Shown here: piece after piece, positions 2,533 to 49,890 of the stretch | Numbering within the stretch: position 1 is the stretch's first letter | How the letters are laid out: the number at the start of each line of letters is the position of its first letter | Notes under the pieces: generated by a model | Told to the model about the DNA's origin: nothing | The model's database searches: none | The model's input: the letters and a program-made list of their open reading frames with translations, nothing else | Translations under genes and position numbers: made by a program | Source: an uncultured Bacteroidota bacterium | GTDB lineage: Bacteria; Bacteroidota; Bacteroidia; Bacteroidales; P3 | Length of the DNA: 64,000 bases | Reading direction: 5' to 3' | Assembly: GCA_902776365.1 (NCBI GenBank) | Contig: CACYPU010000002.1 | Span: 131,180-195,179 of the forward strand

Positions 2533-3534
2533 TCACTCTTGGTTGTCGATGTTGAACTGCAGCGTGGCACCGTCTTTGCGCACGTCGATGGTCACAGGGG
2601 CACCCATCACCAACGGCAGGTTCACCTCGTCGTGGCCGGCAGGGAATCCGCAGAGCACGGGAATGTTGTATTTTTCAAAATAGGGTCGTAACATGGCTTC
2701 GACGCTCTCGTAGGAGAATTCTTTCTCGCAGCCAGTAAACTCGCCCAGTATCACCCCCTTGCAACGGTCCAGAACTCCATTCAAAAGGAGCGCGTTGAAC
2801 TGGCGGTCGACATTGCGCATGGGTTCGTCGACTTCTTCGAGGAAGAGAATGATATCATTCCCGAGGGTGGCGTCGGCTTGGGTTCTGAGATTGGGAGCGA
2901 GGGTGCATAGGTTGCCTCCTACCAGTATGCCGCTGGCTTTACCTTCGATGTTCTGTGGATGTGAGGGAATCTCGTAGTGTGGCACGGATCCCATCAGCAA
3001 GTCGCGCATCAGGGTGCTGTTCTTGTCCTTGCCGCCATGTGCCAGGAATTTACCCATGGTGCCGTGGATGCTCATCACGCCGGCACGTGTCAGGAGCCCG
3101 TGCAGCGTGGTGATGTCGCTGAAACCCACAAGCCACTTCGGGTGTGCGGCCCACTCCTCGAGCGGAATTGAGTCAATGTACTGGATTGTGCCGTAGCCGC
3201 CACGGTTGCAGATGATGGCCTTGATGGTGGTGTCGCTCAATGCCCAGCGCAGGTCGCTCACACGCTGCTCCACCGTTCCGGCATACTTCCCTGCATACAG
3301 GCTGTCGACATTGGGACCGATAACGGGCTCCAATCCCCAACCGCGCAGCACCTCGGCGGCCATTTTTACATCCTCTATTGGAACGGAGTAGGAGGGAGAG
3401 AGGAGCGCCACACGGTCGCCCGCCTTCAAGTAAGGAGGTTTCTCGCAGTGGATATTAATGGCATTTTGGCCGAAAAGATTCGTTGTGCAAACCGATGCTA
3501 GCATAAGCACTAAAATAATTGTTCGTTTTATCAT
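2533..3534 (-). CDS. LD-carboxypeptidase (peptidase S66, LdcA/MccF-like), exported
   Basis: 333-aa ORF with a signal peptide. S66 hallmarks are VGFSDITTLH (nucleophile Ser) and C-terminal GFPAGHD. Confidence 0.85.
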   Translation of the reverse strand: MIKRTIILVLMLASVCTTNLFGQNAINIHCEKPPYLKAGDRVALLSPSYSVPIEDVKMAAEVLRGWGLEPVIGPNVDSLYAGKYAGTVEQRVSDLRWALSDTTIKAIICNRGGYGTIQYIDSIPLEEWAAHPKWLVGFSDITTLHGLLTRAGVMSIHGTMGKFLAHGGKDKNSTLMRDLLMGSVPHYEIPSHPQNIEGKASGILVGGNLCTLAPNLRTQADATLGNDIILFLEEVDEPMRNVDRQFNALLLNGVLDRCKGVILGEFTGCEKEFSYESVEAMLRPYFEKYNIPVLCGFPAGHDEVNLPLVMGAPVTIDVRKDGATLQFNIDNQE

Positions 3535-3568
3535 TCTTGATTCTTAACTCTTAATTCTCAATTCTCCA
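3534..3568. repeat. heptanucleotide array (5 units)
   Basis: TTCTTGA TTCTTAA CTCTTAA TTCTCAA TTCTCCA. It fills the whole gap between the start of 2533..3534 and the stop of 3551..4303, and encodes the C-terminal RIEN* of the latter. Confidence 0.9.
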
Positions 3569-4303
3569 AAACACCCCCACTGATCCGTAGATGGGATACA
3601 GCGTCTGTTCCACCGTCTTGAAGTCGCTTTGGAATATGCAGGAGAGACCCCAGTGCAGGTCGGCGGAAAGTCCGAGACGGCTGCTCATCTGCCAGTCCAC
3701 TCCTATGCCCACGCCCCACTGCAGGCTCCGCATGTCGTCGCTGAAGTCGTATGTGGCCCACTCGCCCTCTTTGTTTCCTATCTCGATTTTAGGTCCTGTA
3801 GGGTCGCCTTGGCGCAGGTAGCCGTCGGAGGCAATGCCGCTGAATTCTTTGGAGACCAGCAGCGACACATAAGGACCTAGTCTAAATCGGAAATCGGAAA
3901 TTGATAATTGAAAACTCACCGGTACTGTTAGCATCCACTGGCTCACCTCCTGTGACACATGTCCCCAAAAGAGGCCGCTAATCTGACTGTTGCCTTTTAC
4001 CATCGCCATGCGATAGCCCCTGACTGTCACCTCTGCATCCATGCCTTTGTTTTCGAGACGGATTCCTCCAACCACGGACCACTGCCCTCTGACCACAGGA
4101 ATAGTCATCTCGGCACCAATGCACGGAGAAAATGTCGGTCGGAAGGCATCGATGCTGCGTATCGACGCCGGCAGGGATAGGGGAGAGGTACCCCCGAAGT
4201 TGTAGCCAATCCGCAACCTCACGTCTACACTATCAATCACTCCCGCCCTGACGCCCATCACGCTCATTAATCCAATTAACCCCAACAATAACGCCTTTTT
4301 CAT
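3551..4303 (-). CDS. outer-membrane beta-barrel protein (PorT/OmpA-barrel-like)
   Basis: 250 aa with a signal peptide (MKKALLLGLIGLMSVMGVRA), alternating beta-strand pattern and an aromatic C-terminus. Confidence 0.7.
   Translation of the reverse strand: MKKALLLGLIGLMSVMGVRAGVIDSVDVRLRIGYNFGGTSPLSLPASIRSIDAFRPTFSPCIGAEMTIPVVRGQWSVVGGIRLENKGMDAEVTVRGYRMAMVKGNSQISGLFWGHVSQEVSQWMLTVPVSFQLSISDFRFRLGPYVSLLVSKEFSGIASDGYLRQGDPTGPKIEIGNKEGEWATYDFSDDMRSLQWGVGIGVDWQMSSRLGLSADLHWGLSCIFQSDFKTVEQTLYPIYGSVGVFWRIEN
3884..3918. repeat. heptanucleotide array inside the OMP CDS
   Basis: AAATCGG AAATCGG AAATTGA TAATTGA AAACTCA. It is translated on the minus strand as ..SFQLSISDFRFRL.. Confidence 0.85.
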
Positions 4304-4338
4304 AACTCTTAATTCTTAACTCTTAACTAATCACTCAA
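4304..4338. repeat. heptanucleotide array (5 units)
   Basis: AACTCTT AATTCTT AACTCTT AACTAAT CACTCAA. It begins directly after the start codon of 3551..4303 and runs into the stop of 4331..5524. Confidence 0.9.
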
Positions 4339-14595: not shown

Positions 14596-15899
14596 GTTTT
14601 GTGTTTTTCTTTCTTTGCTGCTGGAAACAATATATTGTTCAGTATCAGTCGGTATCCGGGTGAGTTGGGGTAGAGTGAGAGGTCAGTGGGTGGGTCGCCG
14701 ATGAAGTGTCGGTAGTCCTCGGGGTCGTGGCCGCCGAGGAAGGTCCAGGTGCCTTTGCCGTATTCGCCGTGCAGGTAGCGCACCTCGCCCAGTTCCTTGT
14801 TGTCGGCCAGAATGACGCAGCTGGTTTTCACCAGTTCGCTGCGGAAGGCGGTGGTCTGACCCATAAAGCCATGCACCAGACGTGTGTGGTTCTGCGTCAG
14901 CATCGTCGGCACCCAGTCCCATTTGGCCGAGAAGTCGAAGAGCACAAAGAAGTCGTTCTTCTCGTTCACCAGCTTCTGTCGTGTGCGGTCGTCGATGTCG
15001 ATGGTCGATATCTCATATTCCGTGGGGTTGGTACTGATACGGAAGTCTTTGAATGCAAAGCATTTGCTGTAATCCAGCGCCGACTGTGCGTTGGGTTGCA
15101 TGGGGTCGCCGTCGAACATCTCGGCGCAGATGTCCACGCCGTCGGCCGCCAGCGCCACATCGTAGCTGTCGGGTGCCGAGCACATGGCGAAGAGGAATCC
15201 GCCGCCCATCACAAAGTCGCGTATCTTTTTGACCACCGCCAGCTTGAGGAGACTTACCTTGCTGAAGCCCAGCTTGTGCGCTGTAGCCTCCTGCAGCTTG
15301 ACATCCTCGATGTACCACTGCTGGCTGCGGTAGTTGGCCCAGAACTTGCCATACTGTCCCGTGAAATCCTCGTGGTGCAGGTGCAGCCAGTCGTAGGTGG
15401 GCAGCACGCCGCTCATCACCTCCTCGTCGTACACCACGTCGTAGGGGATTTCGGCGTAGGTGAGCACCAGCGTCACCGCGTCGTCCCACGGCATCTTGTT
15501 CTTCGGCGAATAGACGGCGATTTTAGGTGCTTTCTGAAGCTTCACGGCGTCCATGTTGACGCTGGGGTCGGCTATGTAGCTGAGGATGGCGCTGCTTTGG
15601 CCGTCGGCGATGACCTCGCAGGTGACGCCGCGGAGCTTGCATTCGCGCTCGATGGCGTCGGCATGCTTCATCATGAAAGTGCCGCCGCGATAGTTGAGCA
15701 GCCAGGTCACCTCCACCTCGCGCTCCAGCGCCCAGTAGGCCACACCGTAGGCTTTCAGGTGGTTCTTCTGCACGTCGTCCATCGGCAATAAAATATAACT
15801 CGCCTGCGCGTGCGCGAACAAAAAAATAAAACATACGGCAACTGCCACACGCTTGGGAAGTGTGTGGAAACAGTAGCCTCTATTTTTTTCAATTTTCAA
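14592..15899 (-). CDS. conserved exported protein, possible GATase1-like fold
   Basis: 435-aa ORF with a GGGFLFAMCSAPDS nucleophile-elbow-like motif. Its stop overlaps the next start (ATGA at 14592-14595). The only upstream start is a TTG that lies within a TTTTCAA array. Function is uncertain. Confidence 0.6.
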   Translation of the reverse strand: MKIEKNRGYCFHTLPKRVAVAVCFIFLFAHAQASYILLPMDDVQKNHLKAYGVAYWALEREVEVTWLLNYRGGTFMMKHADAIERECKLRGVTCEVIADGQSSAILSYIADPSVNMDAVKLQKAPKIAVYSPKNKMPWDDAVTLVLTYAEIPYDVVYDEEVMSGVLPTYDWLHLHHEDFTGQYGKFWANYRSQQWYIEDVKLQEATAHKLGFSKVSLLKLAVVKKIRDFVMGGGFLFAMCSAPDSYDVALAADGVDICAEMFDGDPMQPNAQSALDYSKCFAFKDFRISTNPTEYEISTIDIDDRTRQKLVNEKNDFFVLFDFSAKWDWVPTMLTQNHTRLVHGFMGQTTAFRSELVKTSCVILADNKELGEVRYLHGEYGKGTWTFLGGHDPEDYRHFIGDPPTDLSLYPNSPGYRLILNNILFPAAKKEKHKT

Positions 15900-15920
15900 T
15901 TTTCAATTTTCAATTTTCAA
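15886..15920. repeat. heptanucleotide array, 5 perfect TTTTCAA units
   Basis: Read directly. It lies between the 5' end of 14592..15899 and the tRNA-Leu 3' end. Confidence 0.95.
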
Positions 15921-15926
15921 TTTGTG

Positions 15927-16008
15927 TGCGGATAGGGGGGCTCGAACCCCCACTCCTCTCGGAACAAGATCCTAAGTCTTGCGCGGCTACCAATTACGCC
16001 ATATCCGC
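15927..16008 (-). tRNA. tRNA-Leu (UAG)
   Basis: Reverse complement is GCGGATA TG GCG..CAAGA CTTAGGA TCTTG, then a long variable arm TTCCGAGAGGAGT, then GGGGG TTCGAGC CCCCC TATCCGC A. CCA is not encoded. Confidence 0.9.
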
Positions 16009-16073: not shown

Positions 16074-16108
16074 CTTTCACCTTACACCTTTCATCTTTCA
16101 CCTTTCTT
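16074..16108. repeat. heptanucleotide array (5 units)
   Basis: CTTTCAC CTTACAC CTTTCAT CTTTCAC CTTTCTT. It supplies the msrA C-terminal ..KKGER* and the stop codon. Confidence 0.9.
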
Positions 16109-16636
16109 GTTCGCCATTCTTGCCATTTCAAACAGAGCCTCAGGCAGATGGCAGTATCCGTCGGGATGCTTCACGAGGTAGTCCTGGTGGTATTCCGAGG
16201 CGGGTTGGAACATCCTGAGCGGCTCCACTTCCACGGCCAGCGGTCCCGAATATCCGTGCTCCACCTCGCGGTACACCTCGCGGATGGTCGGCAGGTCCTC
16301 GGGGTCAATGTAATAGATGCCTGTGCGGTAGCGTGTGCCCTCGTCCTCGCCTTGCCGGTTCACCGACGTGGGTTCGATGCAGAGGAAATAGAGATTCAGC
16401 AACTTCTTCAGCGACAACACCTCATCGTCGTACACCACGCGCACCGTCTCGGCGAAGCCCGTTGTGTCGGTGTATACCTCCTCGTAGCTCGGCCCGTGAC
16501 CTGCCGCCACGCGCTCGCCGTACTCCTCGTTGCCGTTGGCAAAACCTGTCTGGGTTTCGATGATGCCCTCTATCTGGTTCAGGTAGTGCTGCGTACCCCA
16601 GAAGCACCCTCCCGCTAGAAAAATCGTCTTGGTCAT
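16091..16636 (-). CDS. msrA: peptide-methionine (S)-S-oxide reductase
   Basis: The start is trimmed to MTKTIFLAGGCFWGTQHY (GCFWG active site). The remainder matches the MsrA fold signature YHQDYL. Confidence 0.9.
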   Translation of the reverse strand: MTKTIFLAGGCFWGTQHYLNQIEGIIETQTGFANGNEEYGERVAAGHGPSYEEVYTDTTGFAETVRVVYDDEVLSLKKLLNLYFLCIEPTSVNRQGEDEGTRYRTGIYYIDPEDLPTIREVYREVEHGYSGPLAVEVEPLRMFQPASEYHQDYLVKHPDGYCHLPEALFEMARMANKKGER

Positions 16637-17537: not shown

Positions 17538-17578
17538 TCGGACGGCTTGAAGTTCTTTCAAGCAGAAGGCCGAATAAT

Positions 17579-17606
17579 GGTTAACGGTTAAAGATTAAAG
17601 GTTAAA
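17579..17606. repeat. heptanucleotide array (4 units)
   Basis: GGTTAAC GGTTAAA GATTAAA GGTTAAA. Confidence 0.9.
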
Positions 17607-17625
17607 GAGGCTGCCGCAGCAAAAT

Positions 17626-17660
17626 CGTTAATCATTAATCAGTAAACAGTAATCATTACA
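17626..17660. repeat. heptanucleotide array (5 units)
   Basis: CGTTAAT CATTAAT CAGTAAA CAGTAAT CATTACA. Confidence 0.9.
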
Positions 17661-17845: not shown

Positions 17846-18448
17846 ATGGCTACAATCATCCCTTTCTATCGCAAGCGTTTTGTCTATGAAAATGATGCGC
17901 AGATGGTATTGGCGGTCATGGTCGGCGATGAGGGAGCCACACGCTACCTCTTCTATGACCACTATACCGCCCTCTTGCGGAAAAATTATAACAAAGTCGT
18001 CGGTCAACTCCCTGTACAGTTCGACGATCTTGTCCAGGAACTTTACCTCTATCTTTGCGAAAATGATTGGGGAAAACTAAAAAAATTTGACCCTGATAAA
18101 GATGACTTTGTTTGTTGGTTTTCAACTGTTTCGTTTCGATTCTTCAAAGATTGCTGCAAAAAAAAGTTCTATTCGTCGACAGATTTCTCCGACGACATTC
18201 CTAATTATGATAAAAGAGAGTCCTACTTTGATTGGGAAAATAGCGAACTCATGCGAGACCTCAGACGCGTGTTACCTTTCTTTCAGCCACCCCGCGACAG
18301 AGAAATTATCGAGGCCACCATTATCCACGACGAGCCCATCGCAGAGGTCGCCAAACGCTACAACCTGACCGAGAACAATCTCTCTACCATCAAGCGCAGG
18401 GCTTTGGCCCGCCTGGTGGCAACCTATTTGTCGGACTATAAAAAATGA
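17846..18448 (+). CDS. ECF-type sigma-70 family RNA polymerase sigma factor
   Basis: Region 2-like segment (LVQELYLYLCEN..WFSTVSFRFFKD) and a region 4 HTH (IAEVAKRYNLTENNLSTIKRRALARL). Confidence 0.8.
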   Translation: MATIIPFYRKRFVYENDAQMVLAVMVGDEGATRYLFYDHYTALLRKNYNKVVGQLPVQFDDLVQELYLYLCENDWGKLKKFDPDKDDFVCWFSTVSFRFFKDCCKKKFYSSTDFSDDIPNYDKRESYFDWENSELMRDLRRVLPFFQPPRDREIIEATIIHDEPIAEVAKRYNLTENNLSTIKRRALARLVATYLSDYKK

Positions 18449-32873: not shown

Positions 32874-33362
32874 TTGGAATCAAACAACAGCGAGACTTCC
32901 CATTCGCCCAACAAACACACCTATCGTTTGTTGGGCGAATCGGGTTTGGTGGAAGACGAGGAGGGCAATCTCTACAATGCCGACCTCTCCGACCTCTACT
33001 CGCTGCCGAAGGAGCCACTCCCTGAGCCCTTATGGCAGCCCGAAACTTCTGGCAAGACGCCACCTTCCTATTGGGATTACGACCCACGCTACTGCGGTCC
33101 CGACCCCGATGCCTATCTGGAGGAGCGCTGGAAGCAATACCAGGCCAAAGCCTCGCACAATTCCGACGGGGCCCAATCCTCTGTAAAGGAGACTCCGGCC
33201 GATGCGGCACAGGACTCGCCTCAGGAGGATTGCCAGCCTCGTGGAGGACTCCATCTCCCCATACGCACCATTGTTTTCTTGATTATTGGTGCAATAGCCT
33301 TTACGGTTTACTTCATTATTTTGATAATCAGTCTTGTGAAGCAGTTGGGTCGATTGTTTTAA
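32874..33362 (+). CDS. hypothetical tail-anchored membrane protein
   Basis: 162 aa, acidic and Pro-rich, with a C-terminal TM (IVFLIIGAIAFTVYFIILIISLV). It starts 12 nt after serS. Confidence 0.5.
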   Translation: MESNNSETSHSPNKHTYRLLGESGLVEDEEGNLYNADLSDLYSLPKEPLPEPLWQPETSGKTPPSYWDYDPRYCGPDPDAYLEERWKQYQAKASHNSDGAQSSVKETPADAAQDSPQEDCQPRGGLHLPIRTIVFLIIGAIAFTVYFIILIISLVKQLGRLF

Positions 33363-33400
33363 GCACTTCGGGTACCCTGTACGGGCCAGAGGTTCATATC

Positions 33401-33477
33401 AACCATATTTCGACCATATTTCTACCATTGTTCTTCCATTTAAATGAAAGAACAATGGAAGAACAATGGAAGAACAG
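33401..33477. repeat. seven 11-bp units with dyad symmetry
   Basis: AACCATATTTC GACCATATTTC TACCATTGTTC TTCCATTTAAA TGAAAGAACAA TGGAAGAACAA TGGAAGAACAG. The arms are inverted about position 33441. Confidence 0.85.
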
Positions 33478-33520
33478 AGGTTGATGTGCTTAAGGATGAG
33501 GGGGGTATGGGGATAAGAAA

Positions 33521-35130: not shown

Positions 35131-37059
35131 TTAACCGACCACGATAGATTCATCGTCTTCGATGCGTAGGTTGCTCATAATGAATTCGCGTCGTTCGAGG
35201 GTGTTCTCGCCCATGTAGAAGGAGAGGACGCCTTTGGTGTCGAAGTCTTTGTGGAGTAACACGGGGTCGAGGCGCATGTCTTTGCCGATGAAGTTCTTGA
35301 ATTCGTCGGGAGAGATTTCGCCGAGGCCTTTGAATCGGGTGATTTCGGCCTTGGGAGTGTCGTGGATGGCGGCGATGCGTTCGTCGTCGGTGTAGCAGTA
35401 GGTGGTTTTCTGTTTGTTGCGTACGCGGAAGAGTGGAGTCTGGAGGATGTAGACGTGGCCTGTCTGGATGAGTTCGGGGTAGAAGCGGAGGAAGAAGGTG
35501 AGGAGGAGTAGACGAATGTGCATGCCGTCGACATCGGCATCGGTGGCGATGACGACGTTGTTGTAGCGAAGGTTTTCGATGCCGTCGTCGATGTCGAGGG
35601 CGTTGTGGAGTAGGTTAAGTTCCTCGTTCTTGTAGACGTCGACTTTGGAGATGGAGTAGGTGTTCTTGGGTTTTCCGCGGAGGGAGAAGACGGCCTGGGT
35701 GTCGACATCGCGAGATTTTGTAATGGAGCCGGAGGCGGAGTCGCCCTCGGTGATGAAGATGGTGCTTTCGAGTCGTCGGGCGTGGTTGGTGTTGTAGTGG
35801 ACGTGGCAGTCGCGGAGCTTGCGGTTGTTGAGGGAGGCTTTCTTGCCGGCTTCGCGAGCCACCTTCTTGATGCCTGCTATCTCTTTGCGTTCCTTTTCGT
35901 TGGCGTTGATTTTAGCGAGTAGGGCGTCGGCGGTTTCGGAGTGCATGTGGAGGTAGTTGTCGAGGTTGCGCTTGAGGATGTCGAGGACGTAGGTTTTGAG
36001 GAGTGGCGAGTCGTTGGAGCCGTCGACCTTGTTGGGTTCGAGGTGTGTGGAGCCGAGCTTGGTTTTTGTTTGAGCCTCGAAGACGGGTTCTTGGATGCGG
36101 ACGCAGAGGGCGCAGACGAGTCCCTGTCGGATGACTTCAGGGGAGTAGTCTTTCTTGATGAAGTCCTTGACGACGCGTGCGTAGGCTTCGCGGAAGGCGC
36201 TCTGGTGAGTGCCGCCCTCGGTGGTGTGCTGGCCGTTGACGAAGGAGTAGTAGTAGTCGTTGGATTGGCCGTTGACGTGGGTGAAGGCGGCTTCGAAGTC
36301 GCCCTCTTTGATGTGGATGATGGGGTAGAGGGGGTCGGACTGGAGGTTGTTCTCGAGGAGGTCGAGGAGTCCGTTCTTGGAGTAGTAGCGGCGGTCGTTG
36401 TAGTACATGGTGAGGCCGCGGTTGAGGTAGCAGTAGTTCCAGATGCGGCGTTCGACGTATTCGGAGATGAAGTGGTAGTTGCCGAAGAGCTTGCTGTCGG
36501 GGATGAACTCAACCAATGTGCCATTGGTTGAGTCAGTGGGTAGTGGGTGGTGGGTAGTGGGTAGTATTTCTGTAATGCCACTGTCGTTGGTGAGTTTGCC
36601 TTCGGAGAATTCGGCGATGCGGGTTTTGCCGTCGCGGATGGCTTGCACTTTGAAATAGCTGCTGAGGGCGTTGACGGCCTTGGTGCCCACGCCGTTGAGG
36701 CCCACGGACTTCTGGAAGACTTTGCTGTCGTATTTGGCTCCGGTGTTGAGTTTGCTGACGGCTTCGACGAGTTTGCCGAGTGGGATTCCGCGGCCGTAGT
36801 CGCGGATGGAGACCTTGCGTTCGGCGAAGTTGATTTTCACTTCGATTTTCTTGCCGAAGCCAGAGGTGAATTCGTCGATGGCATTGTCGATGACCTCTTT
36901 GATGAGGACGTAGATGCCGTCGTCGTGTGAGGAGCCGTCGCCGAGTTTGCCGATATACATACCGGGACGGAGGCGGATGTGTTCCATGTCCTCGAGGTGG
37001 ACGATGGAGTCGTCGTTGTAGTCGATGGGATTGGTGTTGAGTAGGTCTGTTTGCTCCAT
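35131..37059 (-). CDS. parE: DNA topoisomerase IV subunit B
   Basis: GHKL ATPase motifs ([15 protein letters not shown]) and Toprim motifs ([17 protein letters not shown]). The N-terminus is Bacteroidota ParE-like rather than GyrB-like. Confidence 0.85.
36534..36568. repeat. TAGTGGG-family heptanucleotide array inside parE
   Basis: CAGTGGG TAGTGGG TGGTGGG TAGTGGG TAGTATT, translated as [13 protein letters not shown]. Confidence 0.9.
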
Positions 37060-37064
37060 GATAT

Positions 37065-37099
37065 CAGTGTTCAGTGTTTAGTGGGTAGTTGATTATTCT
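37065..37099. repeat. heptanucleotide array filling the parE/upstream-gene gap
   Basis: CAGTGTT CAGTGTT TAGTGGG TAGTTGA TTATTCT. Confidence 0.85.
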
Positions 37100-39123
37100 T
37101 CATCGAGTTTCATTTCGGATGTGATGGTGTAGCCTGTTTTTTCGCCGTCGGAGACGGGTTGGCCAGTGAGGATGGTGAACTGGCTTTCGCTGACTCCTTG
37201 CTCGACGAGGTAGCGGCGTACGATGCCGTTGCGGAATTCGTATCCGCGGGCCACGGTGTCGTTGGCGGGGGCGGGCATGTGCTGTTCGAGGGTGAAGTGG
37301 ACGAGGGAGTCGGACTTGGCGATGGTGGCGAGGTCGCCGAGGATATGGTAGTGCTCGGAGGTGAGTCCGCGCTGGCCGGGTTCGATTTCGATGAATTCGA
37401 GGTTGTCGTTGCCGAATCCGAAGACGTTACCCAGTGCGCGGACGGGCGAGGTGGCCACTTTGACGAGCAGGTTGCCGAGGGTCTTCCATACGATTTTCAT
37501 GTAGCTGAACTCGGGGCTGTCGATGTTTCCCGCGACGGGGATATCGAAGAGAATCTTGTCGTCCTTGTCTTTGAGGATGTAGAGGGCGGTTTTGAGAGGC
37601 AGCTTCTGCTGAGGCTCGATGTCGCTGCGACGGCTGCCGACCTTGGCTTTGTAGATGTCGATTTTGTTTTTGCCGTTGAGGCTGCTGTTCTTGATGGTGT
37701 TGTGCGAGGTGAGGCCGAAGATGCCATCCTCGATGGGTTGGCCGGTGTAGTAGACCGACCATGGTGAGAACTGCCTCATGTCGAGACCTTTGATGGAGAT
37801 GAAGATGTCCTGATGCTGTTTCCAATGGTCGATGTCGCCGGTCCATTTCACCATCAGATGGCCTCCGCCGGGCAGGGTGGCGCGGAGTTTGGCGTTGTTG
37901 CTGCCGCTGAGGGTGAGGTCGGAGGCTTCGATATTGAGGTCGGTGATGGGGAAGGTGAAGAGGTCGGGGAGGGTGTGGTCGTTGTAGGTGAGGTTGCCGT
38001 TGGTGACGGCGAACTCGTGGACGGTCAAGTTGAGGGGACTTCCGGTGGTGTTGGTGTTGGTGTCTTCGGGTTCTTCGGGTTCTTCGGAATTGACGGGTTC
38101 TTCGGAATTGACGGGCTCTTCGGAATTGCCAGATGTTTTTATCAGGCCGTCGATGGTGCTGTGGTCGGCCCATTGGTCGTAGCGGGCGGTGAGGCCCTCG
38201 AGGCGTAGGCTCTGGATGTCGTAGTTGTTGGCGTCGAGGTTGATGTTGTTGACGGCGATGTCGAGCCGTTGCCATCCAGCCACCTGGCCGTTGTTGTCCT
38301 GCAGGTCGACTTCCGACACCGTCACGGTGCCGCCGATGCGGCTCTTGGTGATTTCGCTGACGTTGCCAGAGGCTTTGAGGTGAAGGTCGAGTTTGCCGCT
38401 GAGTTTCTGGTAGTTGAGGATGTCGGAGAGGATGGGCGCCAGGTTGTCGAATTTGAATTTCTCGAGTTTGACGGCGAGGTCGTAGGTGCCCTGTTGTTCG
38501 TGGTAGCTGCCGGCGATATTCAGGTGACCGCCTTTGGCGAAGGCGATATTGAGGCCACCCTCGCTGGCTTGGTCTCCGCCCAATTCCAGATTGGGAACCA
38601 GGAGGTTGATGTCGGGCAGGTGCCACTGTTTGTTTTCGCCGACGTCGTTGTAGTGGATTTGGGCGTGGCTGAGGCGTATGTTGTGGAGTTTGATGAGCCA
38701 GTCGCTCGGGGTGGTGTCCTGCACCTCCTCGGTGGTGTCGGAGGCGAAATGGTCGAGCATGGTTTGGAAGTTAAAGTCCTCGCCACGCTTGACGATGTTG
38801 ACATTGAGTCCCGAGAGGGTGATGTGCTCGAGTTCGACGGTATGGCTGAGGAGTTTGAAGAGGCTGGCTTTGGTGTCGAGGGTGTCGAAGCGGGCGAAAA
38901 CATCTTTCCCGTTGTCTTCGTAGAGGGTGAGGCCGAGGATGGCAACATGGCCGTTGTAGACGTTGATGGTGACGTCGTCGACATGCACCTCGCGGCCTAC
39001 CAGCTCCTTGCCGTGACTGTTGATGTAGCTTTTGGCGATGGGTGACAATAGCAGTGTGGCCAGGATGATGAGTGCCAGCAGGATGCCTATTGTCCACAGG
39101 ACTATTTTCCAAACACGTTTCAT
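37093..39123 (-). CDS. membrane-anchored AsmA/DUF748-like protein
   Basis: 676 aa with an N-terminal TM (IVLWTIGILLALIILATLLL) and a long beta-rich body. The DUF748 assignment is from memory of Bacteroides homologs. Confidence 0.65.
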   Translation of the reverse strand: MKRVWKIVLWTIGILLALIILATLLLSPIAKSYINSHGKELVGREVHVDDVTINVYNGHVAILGLTLYEDNGKDVFARFDTLDTKASLFKLLSHTVELEHITLSGLNVNIVKRGEDFNFQTMLDHFASDTTEEVQDTTPSDWLIKLHNIRLSHAQIHYNDVGENKQWHLPDINLLVPNLELGGDQASEGGLNIAFAKGGHLNIAGSYHEQQGTYDLAVKLEKFKFDNLAPILSDILNYQKLSGKLDLHLKASGNVSEITKSRIGGTVTVSEVDLQDNNGQVAGWQRLDIAVNNINLDANNYDIQSLRLEGLTARYDQWADHSTIDGLIKTSGNSEEPVNSEEPVNSEEPEEPEDTNTNTTGSPLNLTVHEFAVTNGNLTYNDHTLPDLFTFPITDLNIEASDLTLSGSNNAKLRATLPGGGHLMVKWTGDIDHWKQHQDIFISIKGLDMRQFSPWSVYYTGQPIEDGIFGLTSHNTIKNSSLNGKNKIDIYKAKVGSRRSDIEPQQKLPLKTALYILKDKDDKILFDIPVAGNIDSPEFSYMKIVWKTLGNLLVKVATSPVRALGNVFGFGNDNLEFIEIEPGQRGLTSEHYHILGDLATIAKSDSLVHFTLEQHMPAPANDTVARGYEFRNGIVRRYLVEQGVSESQFTILTGQPVSDGEKTGYTITSEMKLDEE
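38064..38130 (-). repeat. 9/18-nt coding tandem repeat (SEEPVN)
   Basis: TCTTCGGGT x2 then TCTTCGGAATTGACGGGT x2.5. The protein reads SEEPVNSEEPVNSEEPEEPE. Confidence 0.85.
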
Positions 39124-39694: not shown

Positions 39695-40306
39695 TTATTC
39701 GTAGAAGTGCATCTCTGTGAGGTACTTGTACACCGGTTCGGTGAGCAGGTAGCGTACGTCTTTATGTGCCGCGATTTGCTGTCGGATGTAGCTGGAGGAG
39801 ATGTCCATCATGGGCACGTCGACCATTGTCACGCTGGGGTGTGAGGCGAGTTCGCAATGCTCGGAGCCGGGACGGGGATAGACGAGGAGGCGGTAGTGGT
39901 CGAGGATATACTGGTAGTTGCGCCATTTCTTGAATGTGTAGAGGTTGTCGCTTCCCATGACGAGGCAGAACTTCCGGTCGGGGTATTTTTCCTGTAGTGC
40001 GGCGAGGGTGACCACCGTGTAGCTGGGGATGGGGAGGTGCATCTCGATGTCGCAGACTTTCAGACGGTAGTTGTCGTCGATGGCCCGCTGCACCATCTGC
40101 AGGCGGTGGTGGTCGGCGAGGAGGGAGGCGCGTTCTTTCAGCGGGTTCTGTGGCGAGACGACAAGCCACACCTCATCAACGCCCTCCAGCTGGAGTATGG
40201 TATTGGCGATGATGAGGTGCCCGACATGAATGGGATTGAAGGAGCCAAAAAAAAGAGCGGTGCTCTTTTTTTTAGTGGGTAGTGGGTAGTGGGTAGTGGG
40301 TAGCAT
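39695..40306 (-). CDS. nadD: nicotinate-nucleotide adenylyltransferase
   Basis: FFGSFNPIHVGH (HxGH) and ISSSYIR motifs. The ATG at 40306 gives an N-terminal [15 protein letters not shown] that is encoded by the heptamer array. Confidence 0.85.
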   Translation of the reverse strand: MLPTTHYPLPTKKKSTALFFGSFNPIHVGHLIIANTILQLEGVDEVWLVVSPQNPLKERASLLADHHRLQMVQRAIDDNYRLKVCDIEMHLPIPSYTVVTLAALQEKYPDRKFCLVMGSDNLYTFKKWRNYQYILDHYRLLVYPRPGSEHCELASHPSVTMVDVPMMDISSSYIRQQIAAHKDVRYLLTEPVYKYLTEMHFYE

Positions 40307-40404
40307 ACTACAACTATTTCTCTGAAGGTAGGGTGTTGGCAAGGGAGGATGTGTAGGTAGTATGCCCCATATGCTACACACTACCCACTATCCACTACCC
40401 ACTA
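40273..40404. mobile_element. MITE-like unit: two 35-nt TAGTGGG-array arms in inverted orientation around a 62-nt spacer
   Basis: Left arm is TAGTGGG x4 + TAGCATA (40273..40307). The right arm (40370..40404) is its reverse complement with 2 mismatches. Confidence 0.6.
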
Positions 40405-40998
40405 ATAATATTTATACGCTGTCTCGACTTTGATGTGGCGGAGTTTTGTGCCTTTGAAGGTGTAGATTTCGGCTACTTCGCCGGCGCCGGAGATGATTTT
40501 CAGCACCTGCACGTCGGCGGTGTATGACTTGGGATATTGTTTGAAGAAGACCTTGAAGACATCATCTTTCGACATGCCCACATGCAGTCCGTTGGCCAGC
40601 ACCACTTCGGGGTCGTTGATGCGTCCTCCGAGGAGCTCCACCTTGCGTGTCCAGATGGAATAGAAGAGGTCGAGGTAGCTGTCGTCGAGGCGTTTGATGC
40701 GGTTGACGCTCACTTCCATGGAGTCGAAGTAGCGGCGATAGTCGCTCTCGCGGTACCAATGCAACTTATTGTCGGTCATGAAGTATTCGATGGAATCCCA
40801 TTGGCCGAAGGGGTAGATGACTTGGCTCGACAGCGAGTAGACGGTCATGGTGTCGGCATATACCTTGATATCTTTAATCTGGTATTCAGGGCGGCTGAAA
40901 CTCATCATGCGCATGGCTTTGGCGCGTGATGCCACTTGCTGTGAGAAAGCCATGGAACTGCATAGCACCAAGGCTGCTAAGGTCAGTATTCGTTTCAT
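40402..40998 (-). CDS. hypothetical exported protein
   Basis: 198 aa with a signal peptide (MKRILTLAALVLCSSMAFSQ). Confidence 0.6.
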   Translation of the reverse strand: MKRILTLAALVLCSSMAFSQQVASRAKAMRMMSFSRPEYQIKDIKVYADTMTVYSLSSQVIYPFGQWDSIEYFMTDNKLHWYRESDYRRYFDSMEVSVNRIKRLDDSYLDLFYSIWTRKVELLGGRINDPEVVLANGLHVGMSKDDVFKVFFKQYPKSYTADVQVLKIISGAGEVAEIYTFKGTKLRHIKVETAYKYY

Positions 40999-49057: not shown

Positions 49058-49080
49058 CGAAAAAAAAATCAACTGACCAA

Positions 49081-49115
49081 ATTTTCAATTCTCAATTTTC
49101 ATTTTTCAATTTGAA
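49081..49115. repeat. heptanucleotide array (5 units)
   Basis: ATTTTCA ATTCTCA ATTTTCA TTTTTCA ATTTGAA. It encodes the ispE C-terminal ..FQIEK* and the stop. Confidence 0.9.
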
Positions 49116-49890
49116 AGATGCCAAAGACGGCAGCCCCGCTGCCGGTCATGGAGGCGTAGAGGGCTCCGCGGCGGTACATCTCCTCCTTCAGTTCCGCAAT
49201 GGCTGGATGCGCAGGGAAAACTGAAGCCTCGAAGTCGTTGACAATGAGGTTGCGCCATTCCTCGACGGGTTTCTTTATCGTCTCCCGCAAGTTGGGCCGT
49301 GTCGCGCCGAACAGGTCGTGGTTTAGGCCGGCGTAAGCTTCTTTCGTCGACACATGCTCCCCTTCGGGAATCTCAATTTGAATTGAAAATTGAGAATTGA
49401 GAATTGAGATTTCGTGAAGTGACTCTAACTGGTCACCGATGCCAGTGGCAAAAGCGGGGCGGTTCTGGATGAAGAAAGCACAGTCGGCACCGAGTTTGGC
49501 GGCACGTTGCTCCAATTCGGCGGTACTCAACTCCAAAGAGAACATCTCATTGAGCATCTTCAGCGTGAAGGCGGCGTCGCTGCTGCCGCCACCAAGGCCT
49601 GCACCGAAGGGGATGTTCTTCTTCAGTCGGATGCTCACGGCAGGGATGTTAAACTCCTCATGCAGAAGCTTCCAGGCATTCATACAGAGGTTGTCTTCGG
49701 GGGCGTTGTCAAGGGCGATGCCGTCTTGGGACATAGTGGGTAGTGGGTAGTGGGTAGAGGGTAGTATTTCCAGCTCGTCTCGGAGGTCGCTGACTGGAAG
49801 GAAGATGGTCTCCAGGTCGTGGTAACCGTCCGCCCGCTTGCCCACCACGTGCAACCCCAGGTTTATCTTACAATTCGGAAAAGAAATCAT
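49099..49890 (-). CDS. ispE: 4-(cytidine 5'-diphospho)-2-C-methyl-D-erythritol kinase
   Basis: GHMP kinase motif PFGAGLGGGSSDAA and N-terminal PNCKINLGL. Confidence 0.9.
   Translation of the reverse strand: MISFPNCKINLGLHVVGKRADGYHDLETIFLPVSDLRDELEILPSTHYPLPTMSQDGIALDNAPEDNLCMNAWKLLHEEFNIPAVSIRLKKNIPFGAGLGGGSSDAAFTLKMLNEMFSLELSTAELEQRAAKLGADCAFFIQNRPAFATGIGDQLESLHEISILNSQFSIQIEIPEGEHVSTKEAYAGLNHDLFGATRPNLRETIKKPVEEWRNLIVNDFEASVFPAHPAIAELKEEMYRRGALYASMTGSGAAVFGIFQIEK
49371..49412. repeat. heptanucleotide array inside ispE
   Basis: TCTCAAT TTGAATT GAAAATT GAGAATT GAGAATT GAGATTT, translated as EISILNSQFSIQIE. Confidence 0.85.
49734..49768. repeat. TAGTGGG-family array inside ispE
   Basis: TAGTGGG x3 TAGAGGG TAGTATT, translated as EILPSTHYPLPTM. 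Confidence 0.9.

Follow-up and report, generated by a model that had tools for sequence, protein, structure and literature searches.

The inverted pair of heptamer arrays between ORF198 and nadD originated as the two arms of an intervening-sequence-type cassette whose central gene has been lost. The full cassette consists of a gene for a ~120-aa four-helix-bundle protein (S23p/IVP, a homologue of Avd) enclosed by complementary tandem-heptamer arrays. We consider it probable that the pair found in the window (the whole 64-kb stretch of DNA analysed here) is the terminal stem of such a decayed PF05635/TIGR02436 cassette and that it also has the role at the mRNA that is proposed below. Genes of the S23p/IVP type, which are homologues of Avd, have been recognised as passengers of rRNA intervening sequences since the early 1990s; in Bacteroidota, Cyanobacteria and many other phyla they rank with the commonest small 'hypothetical' genes.

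The layout given in the original prediction was recovered when the sequence was read again. The left arm (40273-40307) is TAGTGGG x4 + TAGCATA, the right arm (40370-40404) repeats it in reverse complement with 2 of 35 positions mismatched, and the spacer between them (40308-40369) is 62 nt long. A repeat search extended the arms to 39 nt (40269-40307 and 40370-40408) with 92% complementarity. Both arms are period-7 arrays and the genes around the hairpin all lie on the minus strand (Table 1). As had been claimed, the element overlaps the stop codon of the upstream gene (CTA at 40402-40404) as well as the nadD ATG (40306-40304), and translation places the first 11 residues of NadD within the left arm. 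The long hairpin envisaged at the same time was supported by folding: the minus-strand RNA from 40420 to 40255 (166 nt) has a predicted energy of -65.6 kcal/mol, against -37.7 +/- 4.1 for shuffled sequences (z = -6.9), and the stem appears in both the MFE and the centroid folds. Comparison with the longer alleles described below places the deletion junction at ~40350/40351. The stem of the small hairpin that directly follows the 3' arm changes in step elsewhere, being GCGC/GCGC in L177 and L179 and GTGC/GCAC in L178. In gene sense, A8 and not a U-run comes after the large stem, and a terminator scan returned no intrinsic terminator at 40269-40408.

Table 1. Features of the ORF198-nadD junction, in window positions.
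Feature	Position	Strand	Basis or remark
5' arm (gene sense), TTATTAGTGGGTAGTGGATAGTGGGTAGTGTGTAGCATA	40370..40408	-	First TAG (40404-40402) is the ORF198 stop; identical in 10 other contigs of the species
Leader remnant, from the 5' arm to the former IVP start	40351..40369	-	Compared with the 298-nt and 278-nt alleles in L001-L010
Last 11 codons and TAG stop of the deleted PF05635 gene (..LSSLANTLPSEK*)	40315..40350	-	tblastn; homology to the C-terminus of the intact L011 protein
3' arm (gene sense), TATGCTACCC(ACTACCC)3ACTAAAAA	40269..40307	-	Holds the nadD ATG (40306-40304); encodes 11 residues
nadD, nicotinate-nucleotide adenylyltransferase, 203 aa	39695..40306	-	Pfam PF01467, E = 1.8e-26; homologues
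ORF198, signal-peptide protein, no Pfam family	40402..40998	-	Stop CTA at 40402-40404, inside the 5' arm
Second small hairpin, A8GAGC-ACC-GCTCT8	40247..40273		nadD codons 12-21, directly after the 3' arm

Alleles from the same species capture the gene decaying between fixed arms. An exact look-up of the ORF198 protein gathered 10 contigs of this species from rumen and gut metagenomes. In the window and in L002, L006 and L008, 95 nt separate ORF198 from nadD; the distance is 298 nt in L001, L003, L004, L005, L007 and L010 but 278 nt in L009. Arm sequences do not differ between alleles, and the extra DNA (203 bases in the 298-nt allele) sits between them. In the long alleles this DNA encodes a 60-aa stub, MTVRNYKELIVWQKSMTAVKILYSLIKKLPKEELFSLSDQMRRCAVSIPSNIAEGQQRNR, that matches PF05635 ('23S rRNA-intervening sequence protein') over profile positions 1-53 of 106 with E = 2.1e-20 and TIGR02436 ('four helix bundle protein') with E = 9.4e-18; it also matches Avd models weakly, below the Avd family cut-offs (NF033474, E = 8e-6; PF22296, E = 0.002). 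Other strains of the species carry either this 60-aa stub, out of frame, or a 79-aa in-frame mini-ORF. In the window itself, a tblastn search aligned the spacer with P0001 at 11 of 11 identities (40349-40317), and the 11-codon remnant is homologous to the C-terminus of the intact protein of L011. The gene-less state arose in place, via nested internal deletions.

Related lineages supply the earlier states of the same site. An intact PF05635 gene of 120-121 aa stands between homologous arms in L011, L097, L093, L177 and L179, in a common synteny of a T9SS-cargo gene, ORF198, the cassette, nadD, an asmA-like gene and parE. The arms around the intact gene of L011 are 90% complementary, and there a 39-bp terminal stem closes the whole ORF with a predicted energy of -171.9 kcal/mol (z = -7.2). 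The refuting evidence to look for was a gene or stub lacking such borders; those in the long alleles and in L011, L093, L177 and L179 are bounded by homologous arms. Empty sites, in which the ORF198 stop overlaps the nadD ATG (..TACTATTGATGAAACGCACC..), occur in L092, L095, L096, L098, L099, L102 and L103. Comparing the nadD 5' region across strains and lineages, a check proposed with the original prediction, therefore uncovered empty, intact, stub and bare-hairpin states at one locus, and the cassette sits exactly at the ancestral overlap of ORF198 stop and nadD ATG (TATTGATGAAACGC). The same junction also holds array hairpins with quite different units in L100, L104/L106, L105 and L109.

The cassette protein is 72-83% identical between lineages, and the NadD proteins of those lineages are 81-86% identical. 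Because IVP dN is 0.12-0.22 with synonymous sites saturated, the comparison indicates that the protein is under purifying selection; two solved IVP relatives in the PDB (2GSC and 2RLD) have five chains each, and the cassette protein is accordingly predicted to be functional and pentameric. Since IVP dS far exceeds the dS of adjacent nadD (0.65-0.9), the interior of the cassette may have been exchanged or re-acquired rather than strictly inherited in place; strict vertical co-descent of cassette and nadD, which was also considered, is weakened by the same comparison. The flanks are mosaic too. Away from the junction, nadD and ORF198 of the window are ~90% identical to those of the empty-site lineage L092, and this identity is 77-80% within 100 nt of it. 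Identity to the filled lineages L097 and L175 is highest beside the junction (83-86%, except on the ORF198 side of L097, where it is 76%) and drops to about 70-78% farther away. This mosaic identity suggests transfer of the cassette allele among related lineages through homologous recombination of its flanks.

The heptamer differs between lineages, and the two arms differ together. The paired units are TAGTGGG:CCCACTA in the window and L011, CAGTTGG:CCAACTG in L177, TAGCAGG:CCTGCTA in L179 and TAGCGGG/TAGCAGA:CCAGCTA in L093. When six lineages are aligned, pairing holds in 88.9% of cells, and both sides have changed in 12 of 30 pairs; none of 500 shuffles reaches this, and slid registers give 0-1 pairs with two-sided changes. 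The 12 two-sided pairs are not independent, as they represent three or four substitution types, each copied through all units. The pattern points to concerted evolution inside each arm and to compensation between arms, and the predicted pairing is demonstrably conserved between lineages. Because the unit has changed compensatorily in both arms, in all copies, between lineages, the pairing itself would appear to be under selection.

The arms have been taken over by ORF198 and nadD as stop and start codons. In filled sites the first heptamer of the 5' arm gives ORF198 its TAG, and the inner end of the 3' arm gives nadD its ATG, which is the only in-frame ATG, GTG or TTG ahead of the catalytic GSFNPIHVGH motif of NadD. 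NadD proteins accordingly come in a class without cassette (191 aa, N-terminus MKRTALFFG) and a class with cassette (~203 aa), in which the N-terminus is arm-encoded and all repeats vary together, giving variants such as MLPATSYQLPA, MLPTAHCPLPT and MLTTNHYPLTT, among others. Read at the DNA level, the 3' arm is ATG plus 4.4 units in 8 lineages; the NadD N-termini of P0135 and P0164 are longer by 7 aa (three units), and the 5' arms vary from 3 to 7 units. A frame constraint thus appears to be confined to the 3' arm, as expected if this arm is translated. The arms outlast the lost gene because they are now part of two genes, as the ORF198 stop and as the start and first 11 residues of nadD.

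Heptamer arrays are not restricted to this junction. The window has ten arrays of period 7 and 0-2 for each of the periods 5, 6 and 8-11 (0.156 per kb versus at most 0.031 per kb), and several of them abut ATGs. Allowing up to 2 mismatches, TAGTGGGTAGTGGG has 13 matches in the 64-kb window against 0.19 expected, and none of 100 shuffles attains this count of 13. Elsewhere in the window TAGTGGG arrays occur singly and in frame, within parE and ispE, rather than as inverted pairs, so the inverted layout, which had been suggested to show how the TAGTGGG family spreads, does not by itself account for that spread. An absence of further inverted copies had been named as a refuting condition. Inverted array pairs as such do recur: the window contains others at 17575-17658, 33395-33488 and 49080/49381, built from different units.

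The association of PF05635 genes with complementary heptamer arrays extends well beyond this species. We scanned one genome per species with the IVP alignment and found at least 80 loci; the 80 listed, among which the species of the window does not appear, span Bacillota, Bacteroidota, Acidobacteriota, Planctomycetota, Pseudomonadota, CPR and others. An inverted repeat with a score of 14 or more flanks 52 of the 80 listed loci and none of 294 shifted controls, for which the maximum was 11. Seven was the best period, at a self-match of at least 80%, in 34 upstream and 27 downstream flanks of these 80 loci, compared with 1 of 299 controls, and a few listed loci use period 8 or 9. Among the loci listed, the median arm is 27 nt long (IQR 24-32), and at the median the 3' arm begins 7 nt past the stop of the enclosed gene and the 5' arm ends 27 nt ahead of its start. 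The unit is specific to each locus without being arbitrary: 45 of 50 units in the listed loci contain AG, with the consensus NAGTRRY, and a G-rich 5' arm occurs in 43 of 48 (p = 1.4e-8). Among the cassettes with a clear stem in this set, 31 of 51 lie between co-directional genes, with the stop of the upstream gene mostly no more than ~15 nt away from the arm. A rule that 5' arms carry stops in all three frames was tried and holds for TAG-type units like those of the window, but is not general; such stops occur in 21 of 50 5' arms and 15 of 50 3' arms among the listed loci, with no clear difference. An Rfam 15 scan of ten cassette loci at E <= 1 placed no family over the arms and detected no rRNA, its only hits being tRNA and sub-threshold look-alikes of microRNA precursors at other hairpins. 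A PADLOC scan with the intact protein gave no match.

How might the arms act in the operon? ORF198 and nadD are probably co-transcribed. A search for the Bacteroidota -7 box (TAnnTTTG) found none on the gene strand from 43035 to 34931, which is consistent with co-transcription; a sigma-70-type scan gave a weak match (9/12) to this strand within the spacer, at 40342 to 40313, which is not considered meaningful in this phylum. Because the two genes are probably co-transcribed, the arms would pair as a 35-39-bp duplex in the mRNA, and the predicted hairpin would bury the nadD ATG in the read-through transcript, in line with the proposal that the stem sequesters the nadD start. By analogy with S23p-bearing intervening sequences of 23S rRNA, such a duplex would most likely be an RNase III-type processing site that also hides this ATG, and the stem is thus probably a processing or occlusion element of the kind found in rRNA intervening sequences. 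In three of four intact-cassette lineages the IVP stop lies 6-16 nt ahead of the nadD ATG; ribosomes finishing IVP could therefore open the inner stem of intact cassettes and couple nadD translation to that of IVP. The coupling idea is inapplicable to the relic in the window, because nothing is translated just upstream of its nadD ATG. A mid-stem RNase III cut in the Coxiella style would part the loop-proximal nadD ATG from the coding region, which is hard to reconcile with expression of an essential gene. For that reason the stem may act by occlusion or coupling alone, or nadD may have an unrecognised internal promoter.

Other origins for the pair were weighed against these data. The original prediction had likened it to a MITE, and one part of that description stands, in that the pair is a gene-less deletion derivative of a larger inverted-array element; the other part does not, since the full-length parent encodes a 120-aa PF05635 protein alone, without a transposase. 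A non-autonomous DNA transposon with heptamer-array terminal repeats, supplied with transposase in trans, would explain a short element with inverted terminal arrays and no gene, its presence or absence at one locus between related lineages, and perhaps, as repeated insertions, the array hairpins with quite different units at the same junction; the greater synonymous divergence of IVP than of nadD fits as well. The comparison of empty (TATTGATGAAACGC) and filled (TATTAG[...]CTAAAAAAAAGAGC) junctions defines no unambiguous target-site duplication, the arms being periodic and the flanks diverged. Against a MITE, the 64-kb window holds no second copy of the whole unit, and a tblastn search with 120 IVP homologues found no IVP remnant in it beyond the 11 codons of the spacer. 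The deletions are nested and in place, with identical arms in all alleles; the ATG, 4.4 units and A-run common to all filled lineages argue for one ancestral insertion; and the mosaic identity around the junction points to homologous recombination. Presence and absence at this locus look like internal deletion plus homologous recombination of the flanks, not the transposition that MITE-type movement implies, and we regard a MITE as highly improbable. We give almost no credence to a hairpin evolved by the host to regulate nadD, through translational repression or operon punctuation, from local heptamer slippage unrelated to any cassette. Heptamers do indeed dominate the short tandem repeats of this DNA, with several arrays bordering start codons, and comparable TAACTGA arrays ahead of start codons have been put forward as regulators of translation (PMC4679880), but the comparison of alleles and of species shows directly that a PF05635 gene once lay between the arms, and the spacer still holds the last 11 codons of that gene.

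A further alternative concerns what the pairing is kept for. The arms could work at the DNA level, as a cruciform or single-strand hairpin read by a recombinase, a replication factor or the IVP pentamer, with pairing kept for mobility or maintenance of the cassette and not for RNA processing. Across the 51 stems among the loci listed, 47 arm mismatches would allow G.U pairing on the sense strand, compared with 56 on the antisense strand, so there is no strand-specific wobble bias, and selection could for this reason act on a DNA hairpin rather than on RNA. The AG core and the G-rich 5' arm suggest sequence-specific recognition, and the joint change of all unit copies in both arms needs a copying or correction process on DNA. 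Avd binds nucleic acid, and IVP relatives are pentameric. On the other hand, the cassette has no recombinase, its frequent position between co-directional genes fits a need for read-through transcription, and for elements of this type the sole precedent from experiment is an RNA stem cleaved by RNase III (PMC4990558). On balance we find a DNA-level function unlikely, though not negligibly so.

Reading the pair as the stem of a decayed cassette with a role at the mRNA places it beside the intervening sequences of 23S rRNA. Those with an S23p ORF occur in Coxiella burnetii, Leptospira, Xanthomonas and Brucella (Warrier et al. 2016, PMC4990558), and RNase III cleavage of the stem is described for Coxiella, Leptospira and Salmonella (PMC4990558). 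In Coxiella the element combines an S23p ORF with a terminal stem of 28 bp that RNase III cuts; it carries 3 or 4 GACAGAT heptamers, depending on the strain, and in some strains the ORF has suffered deletions (PMC4990558); within the literature searched, this is the one earlier report of heptamers in such elements. The shared features are a PF05635 four-helix-bundle ORF inside a terminal stem of about 28-39 bp, tandem heptamers of strain-variable number in the 5' part of the element, decay of the ORF by internal deletion in some strains with the stem kept, and a long-standing suspicion that the element is selfish. Unlike the rRNA elements, however, that of the window lies in the protein-coding operon ORF198-nadD and not in helix 9, 25 or 45 of 23S rRNA, both of its arms are almost pure heptamer arrays, and they now serve its neighbours as a stop codon and a start codon and form 11 codons of an essential enzyme. 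The likeness to MITEs is that of a short, gene-less, intergenic derivative of a longer element, with inverted-repeat ends and polymorphism between lineages, whereas the parent lacks a transposase, its gene disappeared in situ and there are no dispersed identical copies in the 64 kb compared; with these periodic arms, no target-site duplication is definable.

Comparison with other repeat families and with Avd is also instructive. Like Avd of diversity-generating retroelements, to which it is homologous in sequence, the cassette protein has solved relatives that are pentameric; unlike Avd, it has no reverse transcriptase, template repeat or variable repeat beside it in the loci read. Rickettsia palindromic elements are reportedly (Ogata et al. 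2000) non-tandem palindromes of 100-150 bp restricted to Rickettsia; they resemble the present arrays in being hairpin-capable repeat DNA that is translated in frame within housekeeping proteins, here NadD for the 3' arm and ParE and IspE for the single arrays. They differ in that the translated piece here is a 33-nt heptamer array. Heptanucleotide long simple-sequence repeats (LSSR), reportedly surveyed by Mrazek in 2007, include the STRR sequences of Cyanobacteria (both as cited in PMC4679880). TAACTGA heptamer arrays have been described in Beggiatoaceae, Cyanobacteria and some Bacteroidetes (MacGregor 2015, PMC4679880), with 169 direct sets and one indirect set and no associated gene identified (PMC4679880). 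The arrays studied here share with the TAACTGA, STRR and LSSR arrays their 7-nt tandem units, the strong preference for period 7 and a mostly intergenic position, often a few bases before a start codon and occasionally in ORFs. In contrast to TAACTGA-type arrays, they form complementary pairs around one gene family, and the unit differs by locus. A speculative and rather unlikely extension would unite these observations: the heptamers would be cognate nucleic-acid sites of a pentameric IVP, one unit per subunit with ~4-5 units per arm, and modules of IVP and arrays would form a widespread selfish or regulatory system, in which IVP-linked copying or homogenising keeps the arms complementary and seeds single arrays, among them those of parE and ispE and perhaps also the STRR arrays of Cyanobacteria and the TAACTGA arrays of Beggiatoa.

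In summary, the element is of a known kind, an S23p/IVP intervening-sequence cassette, in an undescribed setting: an mRNA operon in which the arms have been co-opted, with a heptamer signature that extends across phyla. The locus provides a complete natural series at one site, from empty through intact and stub to bare hairpin, and reveals that the stem-enclosed build is also used outside rRNA, wedged into operons. Here a selfish insert has turned indispensable, giving its neighbours their stop and start codons and adding 11 residues to an essential enzyme. Complementary AG-core heptamer arrays, with their concerted evolution and compensatory changes, offer a signature that can be searched for across phyla, and cassettes of this type may have given rise to the as yet unexplained surplus of heptanucleotide arrays that bacterial genomes carry.

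Heptamer arrays in the window are not confined to inverted pairs (Table). Those that stand singly in the short gaps between co-directional genes end at the downstream ATG or at most 4 nt from it, reading on the gene strand, in order of position, (AAGAATT/AAGAGTT)n-ATG, (AGTTAAG)n-TTATG and CTACCCACTA(AACACTG)n..ATG. In this they resemble the TAACTGA arrays of Beggiatoaceae, heptamer repeats found upstream of start codons (PMC4679880).

Table. Repeat arrays and hairpins in the window
Feature	Position	Strand	Setting
Single heptamer arrays	3533-3565; 4303-4328; 37064-37092		short gaps, co-directional genes either side
Perfect (TTTTCAA) x5.4 array	15886-15923		abuts tRNA-Leu gene 15926-16008 (-)
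CTTTCAC-type array	16074-16106		overlaps msrA (16091..16636) stop
Adjacent TAAAGGT-type and AATCATT-type heptamer arrays, 15 nt between	17575-17658		imperfect hairpin
Inverted arrays of 11-nt units, ACCATATTTCG / AATGGAAGAAC	33395-33488		near-perfect hairpin
In-frame CCCACTA array	36535-36565	-	inside parE (35131..37059), topoisomerase IV subunit B
18-nt tandem repeat encoding about 3 copies of NSEEPV in frame	38046-38128		inside asmA-like gene 37093..39123
Small hairpin A8GAGC-ACC-GCTCT8	40247-40273		nadD codons 12-21, directly past 3' arm
Inverted heptamer pair AATTTTC/GAATTGA	49080-49111; 49381-49412		arms 32 nt, 88% complementary, 269 nt apart
Two translated heptamer arrays	49734-49765; 49380-49409		inside ispE-like GHMP kinase gene 49099..49890

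Arrays also lie within coding sequence. The parE array falls in the loop joining the ATPase and transducer domains and is absent from relatives, nine loci being 4-10 residues shorter at that point; it shares the module AT(A/G)CTACCC(ACTACCC)nACT with the nadD arm, in the identical reading frame. The ispE-like kinase, an essential gene, carries two arrays, translated as ELEILPSTHYPLPTMSQ and ISILNSQFSIQ, and both stretches are longer than their counterparts in L098, a relative from an empty-site lineage. On another contig of the window's species (L007:1231-1262) the first of these arrays is shorter by one unit (7 nt), which splits the gene into ORFs of 67 and 211 aa, either as a real frameshift variant or through an assembly error. 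The asmA-like protein varies in length from 667 to 676 aa across contigs of the species, and its 18-nt repeat is therefore probably polymorphic in copy number.

Other arrays in the window form hairpins. G.U pairs give that of the TAAAGGT-type and AATCATT-type arrays, upstream of a + strand gene at 17846, greater stability on the + strand, at -20.4 kcal/mol (z = -4.4), compared with -16.6 (z = -2.7) on the - strand. The hairpin of 11-nt units, which overlaps the 3' end of an ORF (33032..33484), reaches -40 to -43 kcal/mol with z about -9 on both strands. The AATTTTC/GAATTGA pair has one arm in ispE codons 160-170 and the other immediately past the ispE stop, so that what the arms enclose is a housekeeping gene's C-terminal domain rather than an IVP gene.

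In nadD, the small hairpin in codons 12-21 looks like a bidirectional terminator placed in a coding region. Its stem co-varies in other cassette-bearing lineages, with GCGC/GCGC in L177 and L179 and GTGC/GCAC in L178, and the hairpin is less strong in empty-site lineages.

Array hairpins that enclose no gene occupy the ORF198-nadD junction in other lineages (L100 and L104-L109), with very different units: in L104/L106, for example, GCGGAAA pairs with a (TTTCCGC) array grown to roughly 20-25 copies, and in L109 the units are AAAACTA/TAGTTTT. An inverted heptamer hairpin without a gene is also present on a Gemmatimonadaceae contig (L065:1030-1165). These gene-less hairpins either survived the loss of a gene they once enclosed or arose independently.
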